Positions 3,510 through 58,365 of a stretch of DNA of 60,949 nucleotides are shown piece after piece. Made by a program: the position numbers and the translations under genes. Under the pieces are notes generated by a model. The model had not been told where the DNA came from. It saw only the letters and a program-made list of their open reading frames with translations, and searched no databases. Within the stretch, counting starts at the first letter, position 1. Every line of letters begins with the position of its first letter. Source of the DNA: Blastochloris sp. (GTDB lineage: Bacteria > Verrucomicrobiota > Verrucomicrobiia > Methylacidiphilales > JAAUTS01); the NCBI GenBank assembly GCA_012031345.1, contig JAAUTS010000001.1, positions 1-60,949 on the forward strand, written 5' to 3'.

Positions 3510-3620
3510 AACTTGCGCGACCTGCTCTTCGTCTTCAACAAATGATGGACAGGAAGGGGGCCGATGCCTAGCTTTCTTCTTTTAGACAAGCATTTTACAT
3601 CCCTCTGATCCCATCCAATC

Positions 3621-4799: not shown

Positions 4800-4911
4800 A
4801 TTTGAGTTAGTTAACCGCGCTGCCCTAGTGAGACTCCTGTGCGGTCTCGGCTCAATACTCTCTTCCCTCACCTCCAACGCTACACTTGAAAAAATCCGGC
4901 TTGGTTTCCGG

Positions 4912-5241: not shown

Positions 5242-5290
5242 AAGTTTTATTTCAAAGTAATGTATGAAAGCATCAACTCAAATCAGTCTG

Positions 5291-8020: not shown

Positions 8021-8035
8021 AAATTACTTTCGCTA

Positions 8036-8823: not shown

Positions 8824-8859
8824 ATGATAATTTTCTGGTTAAATTGATGACCGCGCCAC

Positions 8860-9264
8860 TTATTCGATGCGGATCACTGTTACTGATATTCTGCCTTTGT
8901 TGTTGAAGTAAAATCCCGAGACGTCATTGACAAAACACATGAGTTCACCGGAATGATTCGCCTTATAATCCCTTCTGGCTGAGCCAATGGTAAACGCCGT
9001 TGTCATTTTGAAGTTCTGCGTTCCCATCAGGCAAAACCACTTGTCCGAAGGTGCGCGGCGCAGCCATTCGGTCAATGTCATCAGGATATTTACGGAATCA
9101 AAACCGTCCGGAGTGCAGGGAATGGAGGCGTCACTCAAGTCTTCGAGCACCTCCGTTCTGAACTCATAAATACCACCTTGCTCGATCAAGAGTCCTGATG
9201 GGTTCCATTTTTTTTCCGCCCAAACATCAAAACTATAATTCTCGGCGGGCATGAGAGTTGTCAT
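8860..9264 (-). CDS. PA-IL/LecA-like lectin-fold protein
   Basis: 134 aa. The C-terminus ELMCFVNDVSGFYFNNKGRISVTVI parallels LecA [23 protein letters not shown] (recalled from memory). Its ATG overlaps the upstream stop (ATGA). Confidence 0.55.
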   Translation of the reverse strand: MTTLMPAENYSFDVWAEKKWNPSGLLIEQGGIYEFRTEVLEDLSDASIPCTPDGFDSVNILMTLTEWLRRAPSDKWFCLMGTQNFKMTTAFTIGSARRDYKANHSGELMCFVNDVSGFYFNNKGRISVTVIRIE

Positions 9265-9905
9265 ATCCTGATACCACGAACCGCAAATGGAACTTTAGGG
9301 ACTCCGGTCATACTCAGGGTGTTGTCATTAAGCCAATTGTAGTTGAGACCAGCGTCCATCGTATGACCCGCGTTTTGCAACGCGAGTCTGGCCGTCAGGT
9401 TGCCTTCGTGTTTGAAGTGGGCCGTGAATTGGGTTGCATAAAACGATTCGAGCACAAGCAGATCATTATCAATCCAACGCCACTTGTTTTTGTCGGTTTC
9501 TCTGAGATTCAACAATGCCTGGTGAATTTCGTGGTGAATGAACCCCTTGGTAAAACATCTGGAGGTGATGCCTGTGATCTCAATGCCAAAGGAAAATTCT
9601 GAAGTCAAAGCAGAGGTGATCGAAAGACCATACTCGGGAAGACCTCCTGTGATTTCAAATTTGCTTTTGTCCGAAACATTTAACTTGAGTGCATTTGCGG
9701 CACCGAGCGCACTGGCGCAATCAGCCTCGGTTACGCCATCTGCAATCTCCCAAGCATAACCTTCAACATGCTTGAATCTGGGATCGGACAGCCACCACTC
9801 CACTTCCAACAGGGCTCCAGGAATCAATCTTTCCGTGGGTGCTGGTATCAAATACGCACCATAACGTTGTCTCATCTCATACGCAACTTTGGTCAATCCA
9901 GCCAT
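9261..9905 (-). CDS. gasdermin N-terminal-domain-like protein (candidate pore former), no C-terminal tail
   Basis: Start chosen at the ATG at 9905, which has GAGGAGG 5 nt upstream; the track ORF extends to 9989. 214 aa, beta-rich. By eye: LIPAPTERLIPGALL, amphipathic Gly/Ser/Thr strands (FEITGGLPEYGLSITSALTSEFSFGIEITGI), DLLVLESFYATQFTAHFKHEG and TLSMTGVPKVPFAVRGIRI follow the order of gasdermin-N elements. Confidence 0.4.
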   Translation of the reverse strand: MAGLTKVAYEMRQRYGAYLIPAPTERLIPGALLEVEWWLSDPRFKHVEGYAWEIADGVTEADCASALGAANALKLNVSDKSKFEITGGLPEYGLSITSALTSEFSFGIEITGITSRCFTKGFIHHEIHQALLNLRETDKNKWRWIDNDLLVLESFYATQFTAHFKHEGNLTARLALQNAGHTMDAGLNYNWLNDNTLSMTGVPKVPFAVRGIRI

Positions 9906-22358: not shown

Positions 22359-22411
22359 CCCCTATATCAAGAGGGGCAGAAAGGGCCGAAGGCCTGCTTC
22401 CGGGTGTGTTT
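22359..22411 (+). repeat. structured intergenic repeat, family 1, copy a
   Basis: cccctatatcaagaggggcagaaagggccgaaggcctgcttccgggtgtgttt. Contains hairpin CCCCT-N8-AGGGG and a small ggcc-loop-ggcc hairpin. Near-identical copies at 24558, 40562 and 40771. Confidence 0.8.
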
Positions 22412-25070: not shown

Positions 25071-28701
<3,631 letters not shown>

Positions 28702-38611: not shown

Positions 38612-39960
38612 ATGAATAGGGTTAAACGCTTGCTGCTGGGTCTGACATTGGTCCTGGCACTCGGAATTCTGGGTGCCTTGGGCTGGATTCACTATTACCT
38701 AAACAGCCCGCGTATGAGCGAGAAGATTCGCCTCATCGTTTCGCAGCGCTTCGACACTCGCCTCGAATTCAACCGCCTGCACATCAATCTTTTCTCCGGC
38801 ATGGAAATCGGACAATCCCGTCTCCTCACCTCCGAAGAAAAAGGCCGGGAGTGGGCCTCTCTCGATCAGGCCCTCTTGGAATACTCCCCCCCTCAGCCTT
38901 CTCAAAAACACCGTCGAAATCAACACCATCCGCCTCAACGAACCCCAGATTCACTTTGAGCAATATCCCGACGGACGCTGGCGTCTCCCCGGCAAAGCCA
39001 CGGAAGAAGCCCGCCAGATGACCCTCAAAACCGGTATCTTCCGCTTCAACATCCTGCTCAAAAAATTTCTCCTGAACGAGGGTAAGGTCCGCGTCTCGAA
39101 TGCCGCCAAGGAAATCCTCTTCGCCGCCGAGGGCGTCAACGTGCTCGGCGAACTTCAACTCCTCAATCATCTCAACGATGCCAAGGGCACCCTCTCCATC
39201 CGCCAACTTCAACTCGGCTCCAAACTCCACTTCACCGACACCCGTTCCCCCTTCGAGTTTGCCGACTCCGTTCTCAAGCTCAATGAACTCAAGGGACACG
39301 TGCATGGAGGCACCTACGAAGGCGCCGCCCAACTCAACACAGGCGTCGGCGGTCCCGGCTTCCTCCTGAATTTATCGCTGCGGGAAGTTGATCTGGCCAG
39401 TCTCCTCCCTGATCTCTCCAGCGGGAACAACCTTCTCCAGGGCCTGCTCCAACTTCAGGTCCAGCTCGCAGGCGATCTCAATCAACCTCTCCTCATGCAA
39501 GGCACAGGCTCCATGCAAATCGGACGCGCCCGCCTCACCGGCATCCCCGCCCTCGACAAACTCGGCACCATGCTCAAACTCCCTCAAATTCGCGAAACCG
39601 AATTTGAATCCATCCAAGGTAACTACAAAGTGGCCGATCAACGAGTCACCTTCTATGAACTCGAAGCCAAATCCCCCGACCTGCAAATGACCGGCAGCGG
39701 CTTCCTCGGCTTTGACCGCAAACTCGACATGGATGTTCTTCTCATCCTTTCCGCCAAGCTCGCCGCTCAAATCCCCCCGGAAGCCCCAGGCTCGCTTTTC
39801 CTCCGGTGAAAACGGCACCCGCAGCATCACCTTTAAACTCAGCGGCAGCCTCGATGCCCCGGTCAGCAACCTGGGGGAAAAACTTGCCCTGCCCGAAACC
39901 CCCATTAATCCCGACGCCCAAGCCTCCCTGCCCGGCACCCCGGAACTTTTCTCCCCTTGA
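38612..39960 (+). CDS. AsmA-family-like envelope protein (two frame breaks, ~38880 and ~39790)
   Basis: N-terminal TM. The C-terminal pattern ...YKVADQRVTFYELEAKSPDLQMTGSGFLGFDRKLDMDVLL... is typical of AsmA C-terminal regions. Three overlapping ORFs. Confidence 0.55.
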
Positions 39961-40542: not shown

Positions 40543-40561
40543 TTTTCAGTAATTAGCCCCT

Positions 40562-40615
40562 CCCCTATATCAAGAGGGGCAGAAAGGGCCGCAGTCCCAC
40601 TTCCGGGTGTGTTTT
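40562..40615 (+). repeat. structured intergenic repeat, family 1, copy c1
   Basis: cccctatatcaagaggggcagaaagggccgcagtcccacttccgggtgtgttt. Confidence 0.8.
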
Positions 40616-40770
40616 TCCCACACTCGAAACCCGTAACTCGTAACTCGAAACCCCTCCCCCCTCGCCCGCTTCCGGGTGTATGTTTTTTCTTCGCTCAAAA
40701 ACTGACAACTGAACACTGACCACTGAAAACTCCCCTCTTTCCTCCCTTCGAAACTCGAAACCTTCTTCGT

Positions 40771-40824
40771 CCCCTATATCAAGAGGGGCAGAAAGGCCTT
40801 CAGGCCGCTTCCGGGTGTGTTTTC
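40771..40824 (+). repeat. structured intergenic repeat, family 1, copy c2
   Basis: cccctatatcaagaggggcagaaaggccttcaggccgcttccgggtgtgtttt. A 3'-half-only copy lies at 40664-40688. Confidence 0.8.
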
Positions 40825-40867
40825 TTTTTTCAGCAACTAGAAACTCTCCCCCCCCTCCCCATCCAAC

Positions 40868-40955
40868 AGAGACCTCACCACCAGCCCTGGCCGATTCAGC
40901 ACATGCGTATAAATCATCGTGGTTGAAACATCCGCATGGCCCAGCAACTCCGAGC
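40868..40955 (-). pseudogene. remnant of a second integrase 3' end
   Basis: The reverse strand reads [25 protein letters not shown]. By eye it is mostly identical at the nucleotide level over roughly 75 nt to the true intI 3' end at about 41010-41085. No upstream coding continuation. Confidence 0.7.
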
Positions 40956-40990
40956 GCAGCGACCCCGAACCCTTTCGGGGCTGCACCTCC

Positions 40991-42354
40991 TTAACTATCG
41001 AGGGGAGAGCCCACCACCAGACCCGGCCTGTTCAAAACATGCGTATAGATCATGGTCGTGGACACATCCGCATGGCCCAGCAACTCTTGCACCGTCCGAA
41101 TATCCGCCCCGCTCTCCAACAAATGCGTCGCAAAGCTGTGCCGCAAGGTATGCGGTGTCACCGTCTTCAACAGACCCGCCTTGCGCGCCGCCTGCTTGAC
41201 CGTTCGTTGCAAATAAACCTCATGCACATGATGCCGTCTGAGCTTTCCACTGCGTGGATCTTCCGCCACCTGCTTGGAGGGAAACAAAAACTGCCAACCC
41301 GGCTCCTTGGAATAACCACCAAACTTTCTTTCCATCCCATCCGGCAGAACTGTTTCCCCCAACCCCTGAGCCAGATCCTGCTGATGTAAGGTCAGCACCT
41401 TGGCTATCTGATCCCGGACTTTGTCCGTCACCGAACGCGGCAACGGTGCCACCCTGTCTTTTCCGCCCTTGCCCTGCCGGATCGTCAACACCCCGCGCTC
41501 CAAATCCACATCCTTCAAGCGCAGACGCACACACTCCAACAACCTCATGCCCGACCCATAAAGCAACTCCACCATCAACTTCAGCACACCGCCCTCCTCC
41601 ATCCCCGCCAACAACGCCCTCACCTCCGCTTTGGTCAACACCACCGGCACCTTGCGCCGCTGTTGCGCCCGTTGCACTCCCTCCAGTAAGCCGAACTCCT
41701 TGCGCAAAACTTCTTTAAAAACAAACAACAACGCATTAAATGCCTGATTCTGCGTCGCGGAAGAAATCTTCCTCTTAATCGCCAGATAACTCAAAAACGC
41801 TTTCCCGTCCTCACCACTAAGACTTTCCCGGTTCTGGGGCTGGGCAAAAATCAGGAAACGCTTCGCCCATTCCACATAGGTTTGCTCCGTGCGATAGGAA
41901 TATTGCCGGGACCTGACTGCCTTTTTGATTTCCTCCAGAAAAGGAAAATACCGCTCCGGCAACTCTCCCGCATCACTCCGACCTGCCCAGACCGATTCAT
42001 CCAGAACCAGATCAGGCCGGTTCAAGGGCCGCTGCGTCATCGCCTCCTGCGGCCAGACCGGATTCCAAGGCTGCGCCCATGGCGCCGGATATATCTGCTG
42101 ATAGACCATCTTCAACGCCGCATCGGCCTGTTCAAGCTGCCAGTGATGGCGACCTTCACTAACCAACCATCCGTAAAAAGCTCGACATCGCTTAGCTCGG
42201 CCTGATAGAAACGCTTAGGTGCAATGAATTTCCCGAACTTCATGACCCAGGCGGAGCGAAACCCCCATTCTCCGGGTTTCACGCCCTGCTTTTCCCAAAG
42301 CTGGTTCAAACGCTCGAAAAAGCTTTCCCCGTCTTTTCTTCCTGATTCAATCAT
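40991..42354 (-). CDS. intI: integron integrase with N-terminal extension (frame break ~42112-42170)
   Basis: Tyrosine-recombinase catalytic residues (R in [25 protein letters not shown]). IntI-specific insertion [24 protein letters not shown]...[14 protein letters not shown] 42112..42408 (start taken at the ATG at 42354) continues the same protein: ...ELFTDGWLV / SEGRHHWQ. Confidence 0.85.
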
Positions 42355-42431
42355 CAATAGAGTCCTTACCTCGAGAAATAGCGACAAAACGACCCAAAAA
42401 CCAGACAAAAAGTTGGCATTATCGATTTCGG

Positions 42432-42484
42432 CAACTGGTTGCCTATTGCAAAAATCCCAACTAGTTGTCTAATATACGTTCGAT
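42432..42484 (+). other. attI region (candidate)
   Basis: Two 12-bp CAACTnGTTGnC boxes (42432-42443, 42458-42469) are followed by the core GTTCGAT (42478-42484), 7 nt before the first cassette ATG. Confidence 0.55.
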
Positions 42485-42490
42485 CAAAAT

Positions 42491-42976
42491 ATGAACAAAG
42501 AAGAGTTCAATAACCTATTTTGCGAGTGCGTGGCTCATTCGAAGTCATTTGCGCAGACAATGGTTACAGAGAAACTTTCCCCCATTGATTCATTCTATTT
42601 GGCGACAGCCCTTCACGATTCCATTGTTTTAGGACCTTTTAGCACAGCAAAAACAACCGATATTTTATATGGTGATGGCAGTTTCCCCAGATGGGTGGAT
42701 ATTAGTGTTTTAGACAGTGAGGAAGCATCAACAGTTTTTTATCTGACCCATTCAGAAGACAGAACAAGAGAGGTCGAGAAAACAACATATTTTGCGAGGG
42801 GCCAAGGCCCCTTCGGAATCAAATCTCCCATACTTCCAAAAGACTGGAGGGATGTTGAGACTTCAGGGCGATTCAGTCTGAAAGAAACAAAAAATAAACA
42901 GAAAATCGAACCAGGCGGTTCAGCCAACCGCGGTAACGCGCTTGGTTTTAGGCACACTCATTCCCGCGGTTGCTGA
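42491..42976 (+). CDS. cassette 1 hypothetical protein
   Basis: 161-aa ORF. The stop TGA lies in the L' box (gcTGAc) of attC1. Confidence 0.5.
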   Translation: MNKEEFNNLFCECVAHSKSFAQTMVTEKLSPIDSFYLATALHDSIVLGPFSTAKTTDILYGDGSFPRWVDISVLDSEEASTVFYLTHSEDRTREVEKTTYFARGQGPFGIKSPILPKDWRDVETSGRFSLKETKNKQKIEPGGSANRGNALGFRHTHSRGC

Positions 42977-42991
42977 CCGCGGACGTTCGGA
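42905..42991 (+). repeat. attC 1
   Basis: atcgaac-caggcggt-tcagccaac ... gttgctga-ccgcggac-gttcgga. Confidence 0.8.
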
Positions 42992-43000
42992 AATGAAAAT

Positions 43001-43354
43001 ATGAAACCCGTCGTCGTGAAAATACCGGTCGAGCGAATCCATGATTGGGATACTTTCCACACGGTCTTTGCCGAGATTCTTGGTTTTCCTAAGTTTTATG
43101 GTCGGAACATGAATGCATGGATTGATTGCATGACTTCTGTCGACTGCCCCGAAGATGGGATGTCGGAAGTGCATGGAACCAAGGAAGCAGGCATGATATT
43201 GGATTTGGGAGTCTGCACGGAATTCGCAAGGCGTTGCCCTCAGCAGTATGAGGCCATTCTAGACTCTGTTGGCTTCGTCAACCACCGCAGGATGGAAGCG
43301 GGAGAGGAACCCGTTCTATCTTTATCCTTCTGGAATGCACAACCACTTAAATAG
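43001..43354 (+). CDS. cassette 2: barstar-like ribonuclease-inhibitor family protein
   Basis: 117 aa. ...IHDWDTFHTVFAEILGFPKFYGRNMNAWIDCMT... parallels barstar ...[20 protein letters not shown] (recalled from memory). Confidence 0.55.
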   Translation: MKPVVVKIPVERIHDWDTFHTVFAEILGFPKFYGRNMNAWIDCMTSVDCPEDGMSEVHGTKEAGMILDLGVCTEFARRCPQQYEAILDSVGFVNHRRMEAGEEPVLSLSFWNAQPLK

Positions 43355-43360
43355 AACAAA

Positions 43361-43472
43361 TCCGAACCATGCCGTCCAGCCAACCCCTACCCGCGTCACG
43401 TCTCCTGCTCTCGCTTCGCTCGTTGGCAGGAGCCGCGCCACGGGCAGGGGTGGCTGACGGCGGACGTTCGGG
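43361..43472 (+). repeat. attC 2 (long class)
   Basis: tccgaac...cagccaac...ctcctgctctcgcttcgctcgttggcaggag...ggctgacggcggacgttcggg. Confidence 0.8.
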
Positions 43473-43478
43473 AAACAA

Positions 43479-43736
43479 ATGAGTATTATTCCTTTCTTTT
43501 CCGGGTTAATAGCTAGTGCAATTTCATTTACTTTGCTTTACAAGCGTTTCTTTGGAACAGAAAATGACTTTTGGGAATGTGTATTTTATGCATTCAAACC
43601 AGATTTCTTTTCTTGGATGGACAAGGATTTACAAAAAGATTACGGAAAATCATTAAAATTGGGATTTTTCCTTGCTATTGTATTCGGAGCGGGATTTCTT
43701 ACGTATTTAATTGTTGAAGCTAATATTTATGAATAA
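43479..43736 (+). CDS. cassette 3: small membrane protein
   Basis: 85 aa with two hydrophobic helices. Confidence 0.5.
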   Translation: MSIIPFFSGLIASAISFTLLYKRFFGTENDFWECVFYAFKPDFFSWMDKDLQKDYGKSLKLGFFLAIVFGAGFLTYLIVEANIYE

Positions 43737-43740
43737 AAAA

Positions 43741-43812
43741 TCCGAACCATGTGGTGCAGCCAAGCCCCTTTCGCCTTCGGCTTCAGTGGCTGGCTGACCA
43801 CAGACGTTCGGT
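43741..43812 (+). repeat. attC 3 (short class)
   Basis: tccgaaccatgtggtgcagccaag...ggctggctgaccacagacgttcggt. Confidence 0.8.
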
Positions 43813-43817
43813 AGAAA

Positions 43818-44258
43818 ATGAAATCTCGCGTCATCATTATAGGTCTACTCTTAGCACTCATAGGCTTGGCATGGGCAATATGGCCACGGGGCTACAGCGA
43901 GTTAGTCATCACCGATTTCTCCAGGCCAGCTCACCTCTCCGCGCACGCGCCTCTGCTTCCCTTCAGACAAGGTCTAATGTATGTCGTGATTGAAGGAAAG
44001 ATCGAAGGAAAAGGGAAATTATTGGTTTATGAGAACTCCTCAGTCGAACCCGAAACGATTCCCATTTTTGGTCCACGGGTTTATTATATATCTGGCGGTG
44101 CAGAAAATTGGTCGGATAGTGTCAGAGTTACTTTTGTGCCAGAAACCATACGGACAGGAACAATTTCGATCAGGCTCTACTGTGGTGCCTACCCAAAACC
44201 CATAGACAGAAATACCGAACAAGGTGGTGCAGCCAACCTCGCTCCGCTCGGCGGCTGA
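43818..44258 (+). CDS. cassette 4: N-terminally anchored/secreted protein
   Basis: 146 aa with an N-terminal hydrophobic helix. The stop TGA lies in the attC4 L' box. Confidence 0.5.
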   Translation: MKSRVIIIGLLLALIGLAWAIWPRGYSELVITDFSRPAHLSAHAPLLPFRQGLMYVVIEGKIEGKGKLLVYENSSVEPETIPIFGPRVYYISGGAENWSDSVRVTFVPETIRTGTISIRLYCGAYPKPIDRNTEQGGAANLAPLGG

Positions 44259-44273
44259 CCACGGACGTTCGGG
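44214..44273 (+). repeat. attC 4 (short class)
   Basis: accgaacaaggtggtgcagccaac...ggcggctgaccacggacgttcggg. Confidence 0.8.
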
Positions 44274-44281
44274 ATAAAGAT

Positions 44282-44608
44282 ATGACCATCCAAGAAAACA
44301 AAGATAAGTTCGATAATTTGCAGATGGAGCTTCTCTACCAGCATGGCGAGACGATCAAAAGGAATTTAGAGAGCCTGAACCTTCCCGCAGACAAGGTCAA
44401 AGAATTAACCGGATCTATGCTTTTCGACATTGCCTGCATCAGCGATGGATCGACCGTTATGAAGACACCTGACGGCGATCCTATACAACCTATCTTAATG
44501 TTTAGTGATGGAGAGGGTTCCGAAGACTTGATTCATGCAGGCGGAGGTCTTGGATGCATGAATATGCATTTGGAGTCGTTGATGACATTTTTGAATCCTA
44601 AAATATAA
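44282..44608 (+). CDS. cassette 5 hypothetical protein
   Basis: 108-aa ORF starting 9 nt after attC4. Confidence 0.5.
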   Translation: MTIQENKDKFDNLQMELLYQHGETIKRNLESLNLPADKVKELTGSMLFDIACISDGSTVMKTPDGDPIQPILMFSDGEGSEDLIHAGGGLGCMNMHLESLMTFLNPKI

Positions 44609-44720
44609 CCCGAACCAGGCGGTGCACCCAACGCTCACCCGCGTCACGCCTCGTGCTTGTCGCTTTGCTCCGGCACGAGTCGCGCCACGGGCGAGGCGTG
44701 GGTGACCGCGGACGTTCCCT
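44609..44720 (+). repeat. attC 5 (long class)
   Basis: cccgaaccaggcggtgcacccaac...cgcgccacgggcgagg...ggtgaccgcggacgttccct. Confidence 0.75.
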
Positions 44721-44728
44721 GAAAATAT

Positions 44729-45226
44729 ATGCCCCTTCCTCCTGATTCCATCTTTGAGCTCTCCAAAGCTATCTGGACAGAAGAGGATTTCGACCAGATG
44801 GGTTGGCATGACGCCACCGTCCATGCACTGGCATTCTCGACCGATACTTTCGAGCTGCTACTCGACATTGACTATATTTATGCATGGGTTGACCCAAAAC
44901 CTCCCGAAGAGCATTTTAATTTCTGGATCTCACCCTGCACCCTTGTTTTCTCAAATGTTTATGACTTCAGCGCCTCCATAGAATTGAGTCAAGGACTTGA
45001 AGTCAGCGACCTCTCACGGGTAGATGAGACAAAACCCAGAAACTCCGACTACATAAAAAGAGAAAAAGAATGGAAATGGATTTTTGATTGCCAACAGGGA
45101 GAGCTTTCCTTTCGTTCCGTTGGCTTTCAGCAAATTACAAGAAAAATGCCGACCCGAGGTAAAAGACAAAGTTTTTCTTGGGAGGAGAGAGGTAACCCTT
45201 GCTTCGATCGAAGCGCATACAAATAA
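44729..45226 (+). CDS. cassette 6 hypothetical protein
   Basis: 165-aa acidic ORF. No family recognised. Confidence 0.5.
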   Translation: MPLPPDSIFELSKAIWTEEDFDQMGWHDATVHALAFSTDTFELLLDIDYIYAWVDPKPPEEHFNFWISPCTLVFSNVYDFSASIELSQGLEVSDLSRVDETKPRNSDYIKREKEWKWIFDCQQGELSFRSVGFQQITRKMPTRGKRQSFSWEERGNPCFDRSAYK

Positions 45227-45229
45227 AAA

Positions 45230-45299
45230 AGCGAACCAGTCGGTTGACCCAATCCCTACAGCCTTCGGCTTCCGGGGATTGGTCACGCGGACGTTCGGC
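45230..45299 (+). repeat. attC 6 (short class)
   Basis: agcgaaccagtcggttgacccaat...attggtcacgcggacgttcggc. Confidence 0.8.
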
Positions 45300-45440
45300 A
45301 AAAGAAATGCAGCGCATCTCATGCAGATTATTTTCCATGAAAACCTATGCGTTGAAATTGATCAGTTTCGTCCACCCATTCACGGCAATCGTCGCAGGCA
45401 CACGGAGGCCATGGGAGCGTCTCGCGCTCCGCAGGAAATT

Positions 45441-45551
45441 GCCGAACCATGTCATTGAGCGAACGTGCCGAATGCTCCGGTTTTGTAATATCAATCACTC
45501 GCAACTCCCTTCTGGTCATGCTCGGCACGCCGCTCATGACTAACGTTAGAC
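45441..45551 (+). repeat. attC 7 (divergent sequence, same architecture)
   Basis: gccgaaccatgtcattgagcgaac...ccgctcatgactaacgttagac. Closes a 252-bp cassette (45295-45546) with no convincing ORF. Confidence 0.65.
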
Positions 45552-45556
45552 AGAAT

Positions 45557-46039
45557 ATGAAGACATACCATGTAGCCGTATCAGCCGAAGCATATGCGGC
45601 GGCCTCTTTTGCCCGCGCAGGCTATGAAGTTTCGGTTCAGTATGGAGCAAACCAGCCAGGCTATGACCTTGTGGCTGTGAAAGACTCAAGAATACTAAAA
45701 GTCAGTGTTAAAGGATCGCAGGACGGCGGATGGGCGCTACTTGCAAAATATAAAAAGGGAAGAAATTGGATTGAAACCGCCAAAGAGTGGCTAACCAACC
45801 AACCTGAAGAGGTCGTGATGTTTTTTGTTCAGTTTAAGGACGTTGAGTTCGCCTCTCCTCCAAGGATGTATTTAGCCAGGGCAAAAGAGGTGGCGGACCA
45901 CCTCCTTAAGGGAAGAAGCGGAAACGTTTCAACCTGCCTTCTTGAAAATTATTCCTATAAGAAGGGAGTCGGAAAGGGAACGACTGACAAGATGCCAGAT
46001 TCTTGGATTTGTTCTGAGAAAAGAATAAATCAAGTCTAA
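45557..46039 (+). CDS. cassette 8: possible PD-(D/E)XK-fold nuclease-like protein
   Basis: 160 aa from the ATG at 45557. SAEAYAAASFARAGYEV...GYDLVAVKDSRILKVSVKGS resembles an E...D...xK arrangement. Weak. Confidence 0.35.
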   Translation: MKTYHVAVSAEAYAAASFARAGYEVSVQYGANQPGYDLVAVKDSRILKVSVKGSQDGGWALLAKYKKGRNWIETAKEWLTNQPEEVVMFFVQFKDVEFASPPRMYLARAKEVADHLLKGRSGNVSTCLLENYSYKKGVGKGTTDKMPDSWICSEKRINQV

Positions 46040-46093
46040 CCATGCCAGTCAGCCAACGCGCGAAACGCGCGTGGCTGCTGGCCGACGTTCGCT
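46034..46093 (+). repeat. attC 8 (short class)
   Basis: gtctaaccatgccagtcagccaac...gtggctgctggccgacgttcgct. The ORF stop TAA lies inside R''. Confidence 0.8.
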
Positions 46094-46102
46094 GAAAATA
46101 CC

Positions 46103-46750
46103 ATGTTCAATAAAGTTTTTGATTGGTTGTATCACTATGCCTCATTTTTGCCCGGTATTGGTCTAACCATAGGATATATTGGAGCAGTTCTGTCAGAGCC
46201 TACCAGAACAGCAACATTTGTTGACCATGTGGCACACTATGAAGAACAGGAAATTGGCATTATTCCAAAATGGCATCATGAAACAAAGCCCCCAAGAGGC
46301 TTTAGTCCTGTAATAGTTATGCAGCCAAAATTAGATTCTGACGGACAGCCTGTTATACGAGAATCTCAACGAACCGTTAAAGGAAAGGGAGTTCCAACGG
46401 TTTATATAAAAGAAAAGAAAGAAATCTTTGTTTCAGAACTAAGTGAAGATAAATATACAATACGACGTATCCGCTCTGTTGGGTATCTTGTTGAGAGGGA
46501 CGAGAAATTTGTTATTAGCAGCCCGCGGCTAATGACAAAAGAAGAATTGGAAAATACTCCCAAAGGGGGGATTCGCGTGCATTATTTACCCAACATCCAT
46601 AAACGTTCTACCGGAGTGTATGAAGTGTATCACGATGTTTCATGGGACGTGAAATTTGACCCAAATTCTGTTTCGATATGGTTCGCCATTGCTGGAACAG
46701 TTTCTGGAGTCCTAATTTTTCATCTTAGGCCGATGTTTACCCAAAAATAA
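46103..46750 (+). CDS. cassette 9: membrane protein with N- and C-terminal TM helices
   Basis: 215-aa ORF. No family recognised. Confidence 0.5.
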   Translation: MFNKVFDWLYHYASFLPGIGLTIGYIGAVLSEPTRTATFVDHVAHYEEQEIGIIPKWHHETKPPRGFSPVIVMQPKLDSDGQPVIRESQRTVKGKGVPTVYIKEKKEIFVSELSEDKYTIRRIRSVGYLVERDEKFVISSPRLMTKEELENTPKGGIRVHYLPNIHKRSTGVYEVYHDVSWDVKFDPNSVSIWFAIAGTVSGVLIFHLRPMFTQK

Positions 46751-46760
46751 CATGATGAAT

Positions 46761-46881
46761 AGCGAACCATGCCGTCCACCCAACACCTACCCGTCCGGCG
46801 GCTGCCGGACCTCCTGCTCTCGCTTCGCTCGTTGGCACGAGTCGCGCCACGGGCAGGTGTGGTTGACGGCGGACGTTTTAA
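46761..46881 (+). repeat. attC 9 (long class)
   Basis: agcgaaccatgccgtccacccaac...ctcctgctctcgcttcgctcgttggcacgag...ggttgacggcggacgttttaa. Confidence 0.8.
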
Positions 46882-46925
46882 AACACTGACTCGACAAATT
46901 GAACCCTCTTTCTAGTATATCTATT

Positions 46926-47165
46926 ATGATTAAGCCTCTTTCCGAAGTCACACGCGACGCCATGGAACTCTCTGTGGATCAGCGCCTTAGCCTCGTCAGA
47001 ACTATTCTTGGCACCACAGAGTCCCACCCGGCTCCTACACACGAAGTCGATCAGGCGTGGGAGGATGAAATCGCAGATAGAATTCAGGCCGTCCAGTCTG
47101 GTCAGGCTACTGGCCGCAAGTGGGACGAAATTTTGAAGGACATCGACAGCCAATTATCCGCATGA
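46926..47165 (+). CDS. cassette 10: addiction-module antitoxin (Unstab_antitox-like)
   Basis: About 79 aa. ...AMELSVDQRLSLVRTIL...VDQAWEDEIADRIQAVQSG is the typical 'putative addiction module component' pattern. Its stop overlaps the toxin start (ATGA). Confidence 0.65.
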   Translation: MIKPLSEVTRDAMELSVDQRLSLVRTILGTTESHPAPTHEVDQAWEDEIADRIQAVQSGQATGRKWDEILKDIDSQLSA

Positions 47166-47455
47166 ACCACACGGTTCTCGATGAAGCGGAAAAAGAGGTC
47201 AACGACGCCATTCTCTACTACGAGGATAAACAGGAGGGCTTGGGAGTCCGTTTTAGGGATGAGGCCGATGAGTATATTCGATGGATTTTGAAGAATCCGG
47301 AAGTTCCCAGAATAAGGAGATTAGGATACAGGCGAGTCAATTTCGACGTATTTCCCTACTACATTCCATATATCATTCATGAAAATCACATTTGGATTCT
47401 CGCATTTGCCCACGCCAGCAGGAAACCGAATTATTGGATTAAAAGAAAGCCATAA
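47162..47455 (+). CDS. cassette 10: ParE/RelE-superfamily toxin
   Basis: 97 aa. ...EAEKEVNDAILYYEDK...FPYYIPYIIHENHIWILAFAHASRKPNYW is the plasmid-stabilisation toxin pattern. Confidence 0.65.
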   Translation: MNHTVLDEAEKEVNDAILYYEDKQEGLGVRFRDEADEYIRWILKNPEVPRIRRLGYRRVNFDVFPYYIPYIIHENHIWILAFAHASRKPNYWIKRKP

Positions 47456-47519
47456 CGAACAAGATCATAGAGGCAACGCCCATCCTGCGGATGGCCGCAC
47501 CTCATGATCGACGTTCGCT
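47454..47519 (+). repeat. attC 10 (short class)
   Basis: aacgaacaagatcatagaggcaac...gccgcacctcatgatcgacgttcgct. Confidence 0.75.
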
Positions 47520-47525
47520 GAATAT

Positions 47526-47891
47526 ATGACTCAGGCACGAGTTAAACCCGAACTTCCAGATCCTTGGCCCTTTGATCAGGCCCCGAATTGCGCCGTTTTC
47601 ACTACGACTCAGATCATCCGTGAGGGCCAGCCCATAACCCACGTATATCACGATCTAGACGATCACGGGTGGCAGTTTCATTATCCCAGAGCGAAGTCGG
47701 ATTCATATGCCATAATCGTAGCTCTGAAAGAAATGTATTTCCATGACCCTACCGTAGTCGAAGTTGCAGATATTCCCCCGGGTGGCGAGCAGTTCGAGCA
47801 GGTGTTGGGATGCCTTGGAAGCGAGAAGAAAACAAATAAAATACGAACCATGCCGTGCAGCCAACCCCTACCCGTCCGGCGGCTGCCGTGA
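47526..47891 (+). CDS. cassette 11: hypothetical, possibly DUF2185/immunity-like
   Basis: 121 aa. CAVFTTTQIIREGQPITHVYHDLDDHGWQF resembles DUF2185-type immunity proteins. The last ~15 codons are encoded by the truncated attC. Confidence 0.3.
   Translation: MTQARVKPELPDPWPFDQAPNCAVFTTTQIIREGQPITHVYHDLDDHGWQFHYPRAKSDSYAIIVALKEMYFHDPTVVEVADIPPGGEQFEQVLGCLGSEKKTNKIRTMPCSQPLPVRRLP
47842..47888 (+). repeat. attC 11, 5' half only (truncated)
   Basis: tacgaaccatgccgtgcagccaacccctacccgtccggcggctgccg matches the first ~45 nt of attC9/attC2, then diverges. No L'/R' follows. Confidence 0.6.
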
Positions 47892-47963
47892 GTCACCTTG
47901 CACATTGGGGCAAAAAAGACGCTTGTATCGATGCGTGTTCTGTAATACGTTGGTTAAATCGAT

Positions 47964-48170
47964 ATGGAAACCGTGACTGTCTCTCCTAAATTTCAGGTTG
48001 TCATCCCGCTAAGTATCCGGAAGGAACTCGATCTGCAGCCGGGCACGAAGCTGCATGTCTTCCGACATGATGACCGGGTCGAGTTCATGCCGATTAGACG
48101 GACGAAGGGAATGCGTGGATTTCTCAAGGGTATCGATACCTCCATCGAACGAGAGGACGATCGTCTGTGA
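47964..48170 (+). CDS. vapB: AbrB/SpoVT-fold antitoxin (VapB-like)
   Basis: 68 aa. VSPKFQVVIPLSIRKELDLQPGTKLHV is a swapped-hairpin barrel motif. GTGA overlap with the PIN gene. Confidence 0.7.
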   Translation: METVTVSPKFQVVIPLSIRKELDLQPGTKLHVFRHDDRVEFMPIRRTKGMRGFLKGIDTSIEREDDRL

Positions 48171-48529
48171 ACGTCGTAGATTCTTCAGCTTGGCTTGAGT
48201 ATCTTGCTGATACGGATCGGGCTGATTTGTTCGCAGAAGCAATAGAAGATGCGGAGACCCTGATAGTGCCAAGCGTCTGCATTTATGAGGTGTACAAGAA
48301 GGTTTTGCGAGAGCGAGGAGAAGACTCAGCAAATCAGGTTTTCAGTTCGATGAGCCTCGGCCGGGTGGTCGATCTGGACTCCTCTTTGGCACTCGAAGCT
48401 GCTCGTCACAAACTGCCATTGGCCGATAGTATCATCTTTGCTACTTCCTTACGGTTCGAGGCGACATTGTGGACTCAGGATAGTCATTTCGAGAACATCG
48501 AGGGGGTTCGCTATTTCCCGAAACAATAA
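48167..48529 (+). CDS. vapC: PIN-domain toxin (VapC-like)
   Basis: 120 aa. Acidic residues in VVDSSAW, IYEV, LADSII and TQDSHF. Confidence 0.75.
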   Translation: MNVVDSSAWLEYLADTDRADLFAEAIEDAETLIVPSVCIYEVYKKVLRERGEDSANQVFSSMSLGRVVDLDSSLALEAARHKLPLADSIIFATSLRFEATLWTQDSHFENIEGVRYFPKQ

Positions 48530-48533
48530 TAAG

Positions 48534-48607
48534 CCCCAACGAAGCGATCACCTAACACCTCACCGTGTCACGCCACAGCGAGTAGTAGGTGATCGCGGAC
48601 GTTGAAG
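48534..48607 (+). repeat. attC 12 (short class, closest to the RYYYAAC/GTTRRRY consensus)
   Basis: ccccaacgaagcgatcacctaac...gtaggtgatcgcggacgttgaag. Confidence 0.75.
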
Positions 48608-48610
48608 AAA

Positions 48611-49366
48611 ATGAATTCCAAGCTCATAGCTGTATCTGCTGTCTTTGCGATCGTGACAATCGCTGAGGCACGCGAGCCGGAAGAATGGTGGTCTAGGCAA
48701 CGCGGGATCACTGAAGGTATTCTCGTTGAAGGCTCAGTGTCTCCTGACAAGAAGTATGCGCTCTTTGAGTTTCACAAGTGGGAGGGACAGACATCCGACA
48801 GTGCCACTACTGCGACGGGTGTCGGCATAGCCCCCGCAGACCGCTCCAAACTGTTATTCATCATTGATTCCAGAACCAAGTGGATGACCGACAAGAAGGT
48901 TACCTCGTTCCTCACCTTCAAATGGAATGACGATTCTACACTACTGGCCACGCACGATTCTGGCGCGAAGCACAGCAAGTTGAACATTTATCGGATACCC
49001 AATTCAGGTTCCGCAGTGTCGCTGGAAGTTCCTGATCTGCTTACGATTGCCACGAAGAAGCTCGGCATTCCGACTTCTACAGTATCCTCCTCCGGTCAGA
49101 CACCCATAAGGTGGCGGACACCCCATGTTCTTGAGGTATCCGTTGGAGTGAACACGCTCAAAGGCAAGTTGACCACCATAGTGCCATTACACATCGATGC
49201 AGAAGGCAAAGTTTCGACACAGTGGAGCAAACCAAGAATGCGAACAGGGGCTGTGCACCCAACGCTCACCCGTCCGGCATCTGCCGCACCTCCTGCTCTC
49301 GCTTCGCTCCCGGCACGGACCGCGCCACGGGCAGGTGTAGATGATCGAGGACTCGGTAAAAAATAA
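48611..49366 (+). CDS. cassette 13: secreted protein; C-terminal ~40 codons read through attC13
   Basis: Signal peptide MNSKLIAVSAVFAIVTIAEA. The frame stays open through the degenerate attC up to 49366. Confidence 0.45.
   Translation: MNSKLIAVSAVFAIVTIAEAREPEEWWSRQRGITEGILVEGSVSPDKKYALFEFHKWEGQTSDSATTATGVGIAPADRSKLLFIIDSRTKWMTDKKVTSFLTFKWNDDSTLLATHDSGAKHSKLNIYRIPNSGSAVSLEVPDLLTIATKKLGIPTSTVSSSGQTPIRWRTPHVLEVSVGVNTLKGKLTTIVPLHIDAEGKVSTQWSKPRMRTGAVHPTLTRPASAAPPALASLPARTAPRAGVDDRGLGKK
49239..49357 (+). repeat. attC 13 (long class, degenerate R')
   Basis: The 5' half and central block match attC5/9. The 3' end reads gaggACTCGGt where ggACGTTCGG is expected (GT missing), and the L' side pairs poorly. 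Confidence 0.55.
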
Positions 49367-49367
49367 C

Positions 49368-49607
49368 ATGACCAAATATTTCATAGTAGGGACGATATTG
49401 TTTTTTGGTTCCATCTGGAGCCTGTATTCGACACTTTACTATGGTTGGTTGACTTCCACTCCGCTCAAAGAAGGATATTTTCAAATTTATCAGAGATCAG
49501 CGATATTCTGGTTTTGGACGTTTATTGGCTTAGTCATTCTCGTGATTGCCTGTTTTATCCGCACCATCATATTATACAGAAAACAAAAAAACGAACCACT
49601 CCGTTGA
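49368..49607 (+). CDS. cassette 14: small membrane protein
   Basis: 79 aa with two to three hydrophobic helices. The stop lies in the truncated attC. Confidence 0.5.
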   Translation: MTKYFIVGTILFFGSIWSLYSTLYYGWLTSTPLKEGYFQIYQRSAIFWFWTFIGLVILVIACFIRTIILYRKQKNEPLR

Positions 49608-49630
49608 CCCAATCCCCCTACAGCCTCCGA
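49590..49630 (+). repeat. attC 14, 5' half only (truncated)
   Basis: aacgaaccactccgttgacccaatccccctacagcctccg matches the 5' half of attC6. The 3' half is absent. Confidence 0.55.
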
Positions 49631-49640
49631 CAGAAAATAC

Positions 49641-49997
49641 ATGATTACTCGCCATATTGTAATGTGGATTTGCATTTTGTGTGTAGGTTTCATGAATTTT
49701 TGTCTATGCATGTTAGCCTACTGGGTAACAAATCTTTATATGCATGTTTTAGGAGATAAGGAGTTGCCCTTAATTTCCACATATTTTTGTCCTCCGTCGA
49801 CAGTGCCCTATTTCATTATACCTATTGGGGTCGCGATACTGGGTCTTTGCGTTACGCTATTCAGACGGCAACACCAGGAGTATCCTATTTTCGTATCACT
49901 TGTTGCCGTTTCATGCTCTCTAGCCTTCGTCAGCCTTTTTCTTTTTGCGGTTGCCTTGCCACTTTTACCTATGGGAATAAGTCGAATAACGCCATAA
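49641..49997 (+). CDS. cassette 15: polytopic membrane protein
   Basis: 118 aa with about 4 hydrophobic helices. Confidence 0.5.
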   Translation: MITRHIVMWICILCVGFMNFCLCMLAYWVTNLYMHVLGDKELPLISTYFCPPSTVPYFIIPIGVAILGLCVTLFRRQHQEYPIFVSLVAVSCSLAFVSLFLFAVALPLLPMGISRITP

Positions 49998-50003
49998 AGA
50001 AAA

Positions 50004-50063
50004 GTCGAACCAGATCGTCTAGTCAACCCCACTACACGGACTGGCTGATGATTAACGTTGATA
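50004..50063 (+). repeat. attC 15 (short class, weaker pairing); last site of the array
   Basis: gtcgaaccagatcgtctagtcaac...ctggctgatgattaacgttgata. Confidence 0.6.
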
Positions 50064-50399: not shown

Positions 50400-50951
50400 A
50401 TGATACCAGGCAGTACACAGGTAGGTTTTGAGGCAACCTTGCTTCGTCCGGCAAAACAAGACGCGGAGGTCTCATGGCTTTTTGTGATTTTGCCCAGGGA
50501 GATCAGTGAAAAGCTTCCGCGACGTGGTAAAACCACGGTGACGGGCAGGATCCATACCTGCCCATTTCAAGCCACTCTCGATCCCGATGGCCAGCTCAGT
50601 CACTGGCTTAAAATTGATAAAAAGTTGCAGATCAAGGCAGGCCTCAAGGCCGGGGATAGAGTGTTCCTGGAAATCACACCCCTCCAGGAAGAACCTGAAC
50701 CCGAAGTGCCGGAGGATTTTCTGAAGGCCCTCCAGTTGAACTCCAAAGCCCTGAATGTATGGAATGAAACGACAACGGTGGCGCGATTGGATTGGGTTCA
50801 CTGGATCACTTCAGCAAAACAAGAGAAGACCCGCCTCAAAAGAATCCAGGATGCCAGTGAGATGTTGGCTGCCGGGAAGAAGCGGGTTTGTTGTTTTGAC
50901 CCTTCCGGATTTTATAGCAAGGTCTTCCGTGCACCGGAGGCCGCCCAATAA
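50400..50951 (+). CDS. DUF1905 + YdeI/OmpD-associated domain protein
   Basis: 183 aa. N-terminal beta-barrel-like FEATLLRP...WLFVILP..., C-terminal ...DFLKALQLNSKALNVWNETTTVARLDWVHWITSAKQEKTRLKRI... Confidence 0.6.
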   Translation: MIPGSTQVGFEATLLRPAKQDAEVSWLFVILPREISEKLPRRGKTTVTGRIHTCPFQATLDPDGQLSHWLKIDKKLQIKAGLKAGDRVFLEITPLQEEPEPEVPEDFLKALQLNSKALNVWNETTTVARLDWVHWITSAKQEKTRLKRIQDASEMLAAGKKRVCCFDPSGFYSKVFRAPEAAQ

Positions 50952-56839: not shown

Positions 56840-58365
56840 ATGCACGCTTTCTGGATTCTCGGCGACCAACTCTCCCCTACTCATCCTGCTCTGAAGTTGG
56901 CGAAGTCGGACGACATCTTCCTCCTTCTGGAATCCTCCCACCGCGCCGGGAAGCTTCGCTACCACCAACATAAGCTGGTGCTCCTCTACTCCGCCATGCG
57001 CCACTACGCCGAGGAACTCCGTCAGCAGGGATTCCGCGTTCATTACCATGCTTTGGAAGATGGCCCCCAGGACTACTTGAAATCCCTGCAAGCCTTCGTC
57101 CAGGAATTCCAACCGGAATCCATCACCGTCATGCAACCCAACGAATGGGCCATGCAGGAGGCTTTACCCGCTCTTTCCAAAAAAATCAAAACCCCCATCC
57201 AGCTCCTGCCCAGCAACCAGTTTCTGGTCTCGCGTGACGATTTCCAACGCTGGGCTTCCGGCAAAAAAAGCCTGCTCATGGCCTCGCATTATCAAACCCA
57301 GCGCCGTCGCCTGAACATCCTGATCGACGAGCAAGGCGAACCGGAAGGAGGCCAATGGAGCTACGACAGCGAGAACCGGGAGGGAGCCAAAAGTTTTGCC
57401 CGTCAATCCCCCAGCCGTCCCCCCGCTGCCCCGGCCCCAACACGACGCCATCACACGCAGCGTGATCAAGACCGTCAAAAAACTTTTCCCCGAACATCCC
57501 GGTCAGGCCGAAACTTTCTGGCTGCCGGTGACACGCCGGGAGTCGCTCGTCTGGTTGGAACATTTCATCACCCATAAACTAGGCAACTTCGGTCCCTACG
57601 AAGACGCCATGATCGACGCCGAGCCCGTGCTTTTCCACTCCGTGCTTTCACCCATGTTGAATCTCGGTCTGCTCAGCCCCATGGAATGTGTCAACGCCGC
57701 GCTCAAAGCCTATCATGAAAAGAAAGCGCCCCTGGCCTCGGTCGAAGGCTTCATCCGCCAAATCATCGGCTGGAGGGAATTTATCCACGGCATCTACTGG
57801 TTGAAAATGCCCGGCTATCTGGATTCCAACGCCCTGCAAGCCGAGCGTCCCCTGCCCTCCTGGATTTACTCCGGGGAGACCGACCTGAATTGCCTGCGCC
57901 AATGCATCACCCAGGCCCGCGAGACCGGTTACAACCATCATATTCAGCGCCTGATGGTTTTGGGTAATTTCTTCATCCTCAGCGGCTGCCAACCCCGCGC
58001 CGTGGTGGATTGGTATCTCGAAATGTACGTGGACGCCTACGACTGGGTCATGCAACCCAATGTCCTCGGCATGGTGCTCTACGCGGATGGCGGCCTCTTC
58101 GCCACCAAACCTTACATCGCGGGCAGTGGTTACATCTCACGCATGAGCAATTATTGCGACTCCTGCCGCTACCAACCCGAGCTCGAAAACCGGGCCCCAG
58201 GCCTGCCCTTTCAATTCCCTGTATTGGAACTTCATCAGCCAACATGCCGGACTCATCAAAAAAAATCCACGCATGGGCATGATGCTCCGAACTTGGGAAA
58301 AAAAATCCCCAGCCGACAAGAAAACCGTCATCGAGTCCGCGCAAAAGTTCCTTGCCCAGCTCTGA
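56840..58365 (+). CDS. cryptochrome/photolyase-family protein, FeS-BCP ((6-4) photolyase PhrB/CryB-like) (at least 3 frame breaks)
   Basis: N-terminus FWILGDQL...HQHKLVLL.... The C-terminal Cys motif SNYCDSCRY...ACPFNSLYWNFI is only recovered by frame switching at ~57390, ~58200 and the A-runs at ~58260-58305. Stop at 58363-58365. Confidence 0.7.

Follow-up and report, generated by a model that had tools for sequence, protein, structure and literature searches.

The 60,949-nucleotide metagenomic contig JAAUTS010000001.1 (assembly GCA_012031345.1), here called the window, almost certainly carries a complete chromosomal integron of the classical kind from an uncultured bacterium of the phylum Verrucomicrobiota. 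The element consists of an integrase gene, intI, on the minus strand, a predicted recombination site, attI, beside it, and an array of 15 co-oriented units of 252-788 bp on the plus strand, which runs divergently from intI from 42479 to 50063 and is bounded by attC sites. A preliminary description, made from the sequence alone, had read the locus in this way, and each of the three parts that it named is supported by our analysis; on the two points that it had singled out as decisive, the recombinase falls among the integron integrases and a covariance model of known attC sites recognizes the palindromes. From the established mechanism of integrons, we infer how such a locus would work: its present activity, the cassette promoter (Pc), stabilization by toxin-antitoxin cassettes and the function of the cargo. 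IntI would recognize attC sites as folded hairpins of the single-stranded bottom strand, a cassette would be excised as a circle by recombination between two attC sites, and the circle would be re-inserted at the double-stranded attI beside intI, with the cut between the G and the TT of the R box. The cassettes, most of them promoterless, would presumably depend for their transcription on a promoter of the intI/attI region, and their order in the array would thus set their expression.

The integrase gene is delimited as follows:

40991..42354, minus strand: intI, integron integrase, about 454 codons once a 1-nt frame break is repaired (from NCBIfam, Pfam, alignment to PDB entry 2A3V and tblastn)
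40991-42166, minus strand: main open reading frame (ORF) of intI, 391 residues, holding the whole canonical IntI core
42112-42354, minus strand: N-terminal ORF of intI, the first 60 residues plus an out-of-frame tail

The 391-residue ORF encodes a tyrosine recombinase with the Pfam domains Phage_int_SAM_4 and Phage_integrase. It scores 418.6 bits against the NCBIfam model "integron integrase" (TIGR02249; cutoff 265) and fails the models for XerD (158.9 bits, cutoff 329.6), XerC (151.6, cutoff 335.15) and XerA (187.9, cutoff 220). Its best relative of solved structure is VchIntIA (PDB 2A3V). Residues 76-389 of the ORF match residues 5-317 of that protein without large gaps (E 7e-83), the catalytic R, K, HxxR, H and Y are all visible in the alignment, and the alignment spans the additional domain specific to IntI (residues ~272-312, nucleotides ~41231-41353, in a stretch beginning LPDGMERKF). 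Moreover, 2A3V is the top Foldseek hit, at 46% identity, for a homologue (P0003) that is 75% identical to the window protein. The nearest IntI homologues, 68-76% identical, come from metagenome-assembled genomes (MAGs) of Verrucomicrobiota (Chthoniobacterales, Methylacidiphilales and Terrimicrobiaceae), and the G+C content of intI, 53-58%, is like that of the flanking DNA. Judged by its sequence, the recombinase belongs to the IntI clade and is an integron integrase. The preliminary description had pointed to the IntI-specific insertion, which is indeed where it aligns to VchIntIA, and had placed the enzyme with IntI rather than Xer, as the models do here; the gene is longer than the ORF at 40991-42166 on which that description was based, starts at 42354 and is broken in frame.

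The array contains 12 intact attC sites, imperfect palindromes of 59-121 nt that start with nnCGAAC (in two cases nnnYAAC) and end with ACGTT(CG):

42905-42991, plus strand: attC site C1
43361-43472, plus strand: attC site C2
43741-43812, plus strand: attC site C3
44214-44273, plus strand: attC site C4
44609-44720, plus strand: attC site C5
45230-45299, plus strand: attC site C6
45441-45551, plus strand: attC site C7
46034-46093, plus strand: attC site C8
46761-46881, plus strand: attC site C9
47454-47519, plus strand: attC site C10
48534-48607, plus strand: attC site C12
50004-50063, plus strand: attC site C15

The octamer GACGTTCG occurs seven times on the plus strand of the window, always at an attC site of the array, and not once on the minus strand. 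Folding of the bottom strand as DNA, which the preliminary description had proposed, gives for the intact sites an R'/R'' stem at the end, 3-4 unpaired nt as a spacer, an L stem from which single bases bulge and, last, a variable loop. Counted from the 3' end, the bulges keep constant positions, 22 (a T in 7 of the 12 sites, with one further T at 21) and 15-16, and because of them a generic inverted-repeat finder recovered few of the sites. The bottom strand is more stable than the top strand in 10 of the 12. Covariation leads to the same structure: with a structure drawn by hand on a MAFFT alignment of the window sites (A2, whose columns are on average 48% identical), pairing holds in 85.9% of the alignment cells, versus 22-44% when the partners are slid by 1-3 columns, and compensatory changes mark 14 of the 22 pairs, among them 13 of the 16 pairs of the L stem, values that none of 500 shuffles reached. 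The claim that a palindrome follows each ORF holds for the 12 cassettes, out of 15, whose sites are complete and fails for C11, C13 and C14, which are defective.

Models made from these sites and from those of class 1 integrons each recognize the other set. We used two covariance models, R1, built from the 12 window sites only, and R2, which draws solely on class 1 integrons (seven attC sites, on plasmids R751, p1658/97 and pWP2-W18-ESBL-06_2) and stands in for the model of IntegronFinder. On three class 1 integrons (37 kb), R1 found at E<0.01 the attC of aadA1 (32.7 bits), those of dfrA14, aac(3)-Ia and aac(6')-Ib, and two more; intI1 is on the other strand in every case, and no other match reached this threshold. 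Where the model leaves two positions unpaired, the aadA1 site has C and A, which correspond to the classical extrahelical G and T of the bottom strand. Conversely, R2, run with filters off on the window, returned 12 matches at E<=1, exactly the 12 intact sites, on the plus strand and with identical borders; 9 of the 12 reach E<0.01. This class-1-only proxy thus supplies the covariance test that the preliminary description had suggested, with an outcome in favor of the sites.

The reach of R1 was also examined in 80 diverse integron loci (Proteobacteria, Acidobacteriota, Chloroflexota, Verrucomicrobiota and others) that were picked by IntI similarity alone, among the matches listed, with integrases 43-55% identical. 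It gave 31 matches in 18 of the 80 loci, 29 of them upstream of intI and on the opposite strand. In the loci of close IntI relatives, it found six sites in L082, one in L084 and one in L081, again all upstream of intI and on the opposite strand. On 48 kb of related Verrucomicrobiota chromosome that has no intI, R1 found nothing below E 0.23; neither R1 nor R2 detected a further attC site beyond 50063 or elsewhere in the window, and a search of the window with Rfam at gathering thresholds matched no family. We therefore take the palindromes to be attC sites equivalent to those of class 1 integrons.

Two of the loci compared merit separate mention. In a MAG of Candidatus Acidiferrales (L019), the attC-like matches, at 2748-2835 and 7680-7752 on the plus strand, lie downstream of intI (647-1588, plus strand), an "inverted integrase" layout unlike that of all other matched loci. 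A 1.38-Mb contig of a Verrucomicrobiae MAG (L044) has at least 13 very regular attC sites of ~123 nt upstream of intI, at 1708-9436 on the minus strand, and is a promising candidate for a sedentary integron of large size in Verrucomicrobiota.

At the intI-proximal end of the array, the junction with the first cassette and a conserved core together predict attI:

42420..42484, plus strand: attI region, with boxes CAACTGGTTGCC (42433-42444) and CAACTAGTTGTC (42459-42470), then the core TCTAATATAC, cut after the G of GTTCGAT

The crossover would fall between 42478 and 42479. The GTTCGAT core (42478-42484) is exactly complementary to R'' in C1, the attC of the first cassette; it and the two boxes upstream are present as the preliminary description had reported them. 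A core of the form YCYAATATAC followed directly by GTTCG, together with a box GGTTGCCTATTGCA, also lies upstream of intI in the relatives L082/L083, L084 and L081.

The order of the cassettes bears a further mark of recombination. If R' is cut between G and TT, the 5' end of a cassette should carry the TTnnnn half of its own R', and after insertion of a circle the R'' at the 3' end should be complementary to the R' at the cassette's own 5' junction and not to the adjacent R'. In 7 of the first 9 cassettes, the reverse-complemented R'' agrees with the preceding R' at 7/7 positions, as in attI GTTCGAT and C1 ATCGAAC or in the odd pair of C7 GTTAGAC and C8 GTCTAAC. On average, identity to the preceding site is 6.2, versus 5.0 to the adjacent one (permutation test, 5/100000). 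This complementarity is the footprint of circular-cassette insertion, and it also fixes attI, with the first cassette starting at 42479.

The 15 cassettes are listed below with their bottom-strand folding energies, where given, and their scores under the two models.

42479..42985, plus strand: cassette 1; ORF 42491-42976, 161 residues, no family match; C1, 87 nt (R1 74 bits, by construction; R2 34.3 bits, E 4e-6; fold -24.5 kcal/mol)
42986..43466, plus strand: cassette 2; ORF 43001-43354, 117 residues, barstar family (Pfam Barstar, E 4.9e-12); C2, 112 nt, long type (R2 47.9 bits; fold -43.2 kcal/mol with bulged T and G)
43467..43806, plus strand: cassette 3; ORF 43479-43736, 85 residues, hydrophobic; C3 (R2 51 bits, E 3e-10)
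43807..44267, plus strand: cassette 4; ORF 43818-44258, 146 residues, N-terminal hydrophobic segment; C4 (R2 43.4 bits)
44268..44714, plus strand: cassette 5; ORF 44282-44608, 108 residues; C5, long type, R' GTTCCCT (R2 26.1 bits, E 5e-4)
44715..45293, plus strand: cassette 6; ORF 44729-45226, 165 residues; C6, single-bulge variant (R2 15.5 bits, E 0.23)
45294..45545, plus strand: cassette 7; no convincing ORF in 147 nt of cargo (45294-45440); C7, R' GTTAGAC (R2 23.9 bits, E 0.0017)
45546..46087, plus strand: cassette 8; ORF 45557-46039, 160 residues, weakly PD-(D/E)XK/YraN-like; C8, R'' GTCTAAC (R2 33.3 bits)
46088..46875, plus strand: cassette 9; ORF 46103-46750, 215 residues; C9, 121 nt, long type, R' GTTTTAA (R2 24.5 bits, E 0.0012)
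46876..47513, plus strand: cassette 10, toxin-antitoxin; antitoxin 46899/46926-47165, ParE/RelE-like toxin 47162-47455; C10 (R2 22.7 bits)
47514..47949, plus strand: cassette 11; ORF 47526-47891, 121 residues; attC remnant C11, left half of the long type
47950..48601, plus strand: cassette 12, toxin-antitoxin; VapB-like protein 47964-48170 (MazE/AbrB fold), VapC PIN toxin 48167-48529; C12, R'' CCCCAAC, R' GTTGAAG (R2 17 bits, E 0.097; fold -20.5 kcal/mol)
48602..49352, plus strand: cassette 13; ORF 48611-49366, ~251 residues, signal-peptide-like N terminus, reading into the degenerate C13
49353..49640, plus strand: cassette 14; ORF 49368-49607, 79 residues, membrane protein; attC remnant C14, homologous to C6
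49641..50063, plus strand: cassette 15; ORF 49641-49997, 118 residues, membrane protein; C15, R' GTTGATA, last site of the array (R1 43.6 bits; R2 18.3 bits, E 0.046)

The cassette ORFs begin 8-15 nt past the crossover, behind an A-rich leader. The G+C content of the array is 41-52%, compared with 52-61% in the flanks; low-G+C cassettes are usual in integrons. The preliminary description had counted about 15 co-oriented cassettes, each with a short ORF; the 15 units are there, but two of them (10 and 12) hold two genes each and cassette 7 has no convincing ORF. Cassette 7 may be ORF-less, possibly regulatory or coding for an RNA, or else an indel error may have damaged it.

That the cargo is mostly unrecognizable, as had also been remarked, is borne out by the family searches. 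The exceptions are the barstar of cassette 2, the protein of cassette 8, which resembles PD-(D/E)XK nucleases weakly (PDDEXK_5, E 2e-5, just under the Pfam cutoff; YraN, E 6e-4, far under its cutoff), and the two toxin-antitoxin pairs. In cassette 10, the antitoxin matches Pfam Unstab_antitox (E 8e-11) and the toxin has a tblastn match to the ParE_toxin gene of L084; in cassette 12, the proteins match Pfam MazE_antitoxin (E 2e-6) and PIN (E 2e-13). The remaining cassette proteins have no match in Pfam, NCBIfam or PADLOC; judged by eye from their translations, they are small and several are hydrophobic. Only the ParE-type toxin has homologues in the other integron loci compared. The ParE-type and VapBC cassettes probably stabilize the array. 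Two overlapping sigma-70-like matches lie at 46891-46927, directly upstream of the cassette 10 antitoxin, in a scan that as a whole was not above chance; their position fits toxin-antitoxin cassettes that bring their own promoter.

The array is not in the same state throughout. The nine proximal cassettes are pristine and look recombination-competent. In the distal half, around and after the two toxin-antitoxin cassettes, attC sites have decayed. C11 (47842-47894) and C14 (49590-~49640) are left halves only; the alignment of C11 with C2, C5 and C9 stops after GGCTGCCG, with a possible R' box, GTTGGTT, at 47949-47955, and R1 gives the remnant 17.5 bits. C13 (49239-~49352) is a full-length site of the long type that both R1 and R2 missed and whose R' is mutated to GGACTCGG in place of GGACGTT. 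The R''/R' match is gone in cassettes 10-13. Three of the distal six cassettes have thus lost a functional attC and are now fixed in place.

The frame break in intI has to be judged together with the quality of the contig. Searches by tblastn with 75-76% identical homologues of 453 residues map the frame switch exactly to a run of five A residues at 42175-42179, with the first 60 residues encoded in a different frame at 42175-42354. The remainder of the gene has no stop codons and is 75-76% identical to the intact homologues. IntI homologues are mostly 440-470 residues long, and the closest N-terminal homologue, among five fragments returned by a search with the 60-residue N-terminal fragment, passes the break position in a single frame. 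Other genes of the window are broken as well. The AsmA-like gene is spread over three frames, with switches at C7 and C6 runs (38885-38892 and 39772-39778); PFOR is split into ORFs whose overlap (27251-27447) contains homopolymer runs; and the DPRP photolyase-related gene is split likewise, with homopolymer runs in the overlap at 57396-57577. For intI and the AsmA-like gene, the break is pinned to a homopolymer run, and for PFOR and DPRP it is known from the ORF overlaps. The contig looks like an error-prone, perhaps long-read, assembly. With other housekeeping genes of the window in the same condition, an erroneous indel at a homopolymer, introduced in the assembly, is the most likely cause of the break in intI. 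Programmed -1 frameshifting and transcriptional slippage at the T5 run were also weighed for intI, and we discarded both: the stretch DVE[AG]FY lies in a single frame in intact homologues, and sequencing errors are what the remaining broken genes of the window suggest.

Housekeeping genes flank the element. Upstream lie a diacylglycerol (DAG) kinase gene, the AsmA-like gene and rsmD; downstream lie a YdeI/OmdA-family gene (50400-50951) and then suf genes (SufT-like, NifU-like, rhodanese, SufD and SufB), and sdhA is also among the flanking housekeeping genes. The flanks contain no tni genes. With housekeeping genes on both sides, the integron is chromosomal. The preliminary description had placed it between rsmD and the suf cluster, and both flanks were found, with the YdeI/OmdA-family gene between the last attC and suf. 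SdhA of the contig is 81% identical to Methylacidiphilales proteins and 75-78% identical to proteins of Verrucomicrobiales/-ae. In the nearest available relatives (RsmD 67-71% identical), the DAG kinase-AsmA-rsmD synteny is kept, the DNA downstream is different, and there is no intI; homologous integrases occupy other chromosomal contexts.

Between rsmD and intI lie about 450 bp of repeats, together with the following relic:

40850..40950, minus strand: relic of the 3' end of a second intI, 40 nt downstream of the stop codon of the resident intI (tblastn high-scoring segment pair)

The relic is a 101-nt direct repeat, 78% identical in DNA to 40986-41086, and differs from the resident intI by 12 synonymous and 3 non-synonymous changes in 31 codons. 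As the differences are mostly synonymous, the relic derives from a diverged intI allele that was once under selection, which implies an earlier integron, or a replacement or rearrangement of the integron platform, at this site.

Some smaller features of the region can be noted here. A perfect hairpin, CCCCGAA-AGGG-TTCGGGG, lies at 40963-40980 between the intI stop codon and the relic; it could be a terminator, and its arms resemble the attC R''/R' boxes CCCGAAC/GTTCGGG. A dispersed 26-nt hairpin repeat, CCCCTATATCAAGAGGGGCAGAAAGG, has three exact copies in the window, at 22359-22384, 40562-40587 and 40771-40796, and none in 100 shuffles. Two of the copies are between rsmD and intI, within a repeat of ~60-70 nt (40561-40623 and 40770-40831). 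In relatives (loci L085-L087), the DNA right after rsmD varies by genome, and L085 has a fragment of a DUF772 transposase there (8263-8637); the position after rsmD thus looks like a variable spot or a synteny breakpoint.

Several observations weigh against a complete, classical integron. As written, intI is out of frame at 42175-42179, and if this is real, there is no full-length enzyme. Three of the last five attC sites are defective. No Pc promoter emerged, as a scan for the sigma-70 consensus and for terminators did no better on this DNA than on shuffled sequence, the promoter rules of the host phylum being outside the scope of the tool. Finally, the class 1 alignment behind R2 was fitted with the structure of R1, so that the reverse test is not fully independent. 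The first two of these observations would also be expected of a fossil or decaying integron, in which the break is a real mutation, the full-length integrase has been lost, the array is frozen, and attC sites have been lost from the distal end. The break does cut the first 60 residues off the rest of the protein, R''/R' complementarity is missing from cassettes 10-13, the adjacent relic shows that intI has been destroyed at this site before, and intI pseudogenes beside arrays are known (PMC4889954). We nevertheless consider a fossil unlikely. The AsmA-like, PFOR and DPRP genes, which are also broken, point to indel errors of the assembly; the rest of intI is free of stop codons and keeps its similarity to intact homologues, and nothing of the canonical IntI core is missing from the 391-residue ORF; in the closest N-terminal homologue, a single frame runs across the position of the break; and cassettes 1-9, the proximal ones, are pristine.

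Two more radical explanations would dispense with a resident integron altogether. It is barely conceivable that the locus is no integron at all and consists of a Xer-like or phage recombinase beside unrelated palindromic repeats, such as elements like repetitive extragenic palindromes (REP) or terminators. The genome does contain other dispersed hairpin repeats, of which CCCCTATATCAAGAGGGGCAGAAAGG at 22359, 40562 and 40771 is an example. But the recombinase passes the IntI model and stays far under the cutoffs of the Xer models, a model built from class 1 sites alone finds the palindromes, the bulged bases fall at the same model positions as in the aadA1 attC, the R''/R' permutation footprint is not expected for REP elements or terminators, and the sites are all on one strand and confined to the array. 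A chimeric join in the assembly, which would have put the integron of another organism or plasmid onto a Verrucomicrobiota chromosome, is somewhat less remote and still very improbable. The array has a lower G+C content than the flanks, the window, which makes up an entire metagenomic contig, shows signs of error-prone sequencing, and the nearest relatives have no integron after rsmD. On the other hand, the closest IntI homologues belong to the same phylum as the flanks, the G+C content of intI is flank-like, low G+C is the rule for cassettes, and two more copies of the repeat at 22359, situated between rsmD and intI, link that border with the host genome. A complete chromosomal integron, with intI most likely broken in the assembly only, thus accounts best for the locus.

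The integrase itself has a feature that may deserve more attention than the integron. The clade of the window intI has an extra N-terminal region of about 130 residues (41950-42354, minus strand, in the window; homologues P0002-P0120). In the AlphaFold model of P0003 (mean pLDDT 84), the N-terminal helices 12-23, 27-44, 54-66 and 71-88 mirror the helices 134-149, 154-171, 181-193 and 199-216 of the SAM-like domain, and a profile-profile comparison (hhalign) of the N-terminal and SAM-like regions gave a probability of 96.4% and E 1e-9 over 81 columns. The extra four-helix domain is thus an internal duplicate of the SAM-like core-binding domain. The long form of IntI (~420-490 residues) accounts for most of the closest 120 database relatives and is found in Verrucomicrobiota, Planctomycetota, Desulfobacterota, Gammaproteobacteria and other groups; a literature search found no description of an IntI subfamily with a duplicated N-terminal domain. 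To our knowledge, mechanistic knowledge of integron recombination all comes from short integrases of ~320-340 residues. The duplicated module could act as a second DNA-binding unit that adds a recognition step, in which case the mechanism of recombination or its regulation would differ from the IntI1/VchIntIA paradigm; we put this forward tentatively and think it rather less than likely. One possibility is that the extra domain contacts the conserved accessory boxes of attI, in the manner of the lambda Int arm-binding domain at its arm sites; another is that it holds a second strand of the folded attC. It is the one feature of the locus that might repay experiments.

In other respects, the locus is one more well-delimited integron from a phylum in which few have been examined in detail. 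Its cassette boundaries are clean, its candidate attI is conserved, and the 15 cassettes are nearly all of unknown function. It is useful for cataloguing and is not surprising; the orphan barstar, the nuclease-like protein and the two toxin-antitoxin pairs are the cargo of note. It also carries a caution. A frame-broken intI is easily reported as a pseudogene, and here a homopolymer sequencing error is the probable cause; for broken genes on this contig, the reads should be checked before pseudogenes are called.

Comparison with known integrons places the element more closely. In class 1 integrons, the R box of attC is GTTRRRY. Those integrons (R751, p1658/97) have in common with the window the geometry of an intI divergent from attI and co-oriented cassettes, an attC architecture that includes the two bulged positions, such that models of either set recognize the other, and an integrase with the additional domain and catalytic residues. 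They differ in that R box, as opposed to CGAAC/GTTCG in the window sites. The window integron is chromosomal, belongs to Verrucomicrobiota and lacks Tn402 tni genes, a 3' conserved segment and resistance genes; its integrase, with the extra ~130-residue N-terminal domain, is 44.7% identical to IntI1. Because the recombinase fails the class 1 equivalog model (NF011946; 294 bits, cutoff 435), because of this low identity to IntI1, and because the housekeeping flanks are without tni, the element appears to lie outside the mobile integron classes 1-5. The Vibrio cholerae superintegron likewise occupies a chromosomal site and carries small proteins of unknown function and toxin-antitoxin cassettes; its attC sites form one homogeneous repeat family (the V. 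cholerae repeats, VCR), whereas those of the window are heterogeneous in length and sequence.

Cury et al. (2016, PMC4889954) define sedentary integrons as those with >19 attC sites or present in all genomes of a species. The window has 12 intact and 3 degenerate sites. The preliminary description had found the cargo typical of sedentary chromosomal integrons, and of these two terms only "chromosomal" stands, by virtue of the housekeeping flanks; the array has only 15 cassettes, and the site has no integron in the nearest relatives. The same study found integrons of Verrucomicrobia and other non-proteobacterial phyla with IntegronFinder, so that integrons are already on record for this phylum and the present locus adds a classical example. 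Homologous integrases, 68-76% identical, also stand beside attC arrays on the metagenomic contigs L081, L082 and L084, which have neither the locus, the cassette content nor the insertion site in common with the window. Were the break in intI real, the element would be heading toward the integrons with intI pseudogenes and the attC clusters that have no integrase (CALIN), and the decay of its distal attC sites is compatible with such a course. A CALIN has no integrase, however, whereas the window has an essentially intact intI, with a break that is probably a sequencing error.

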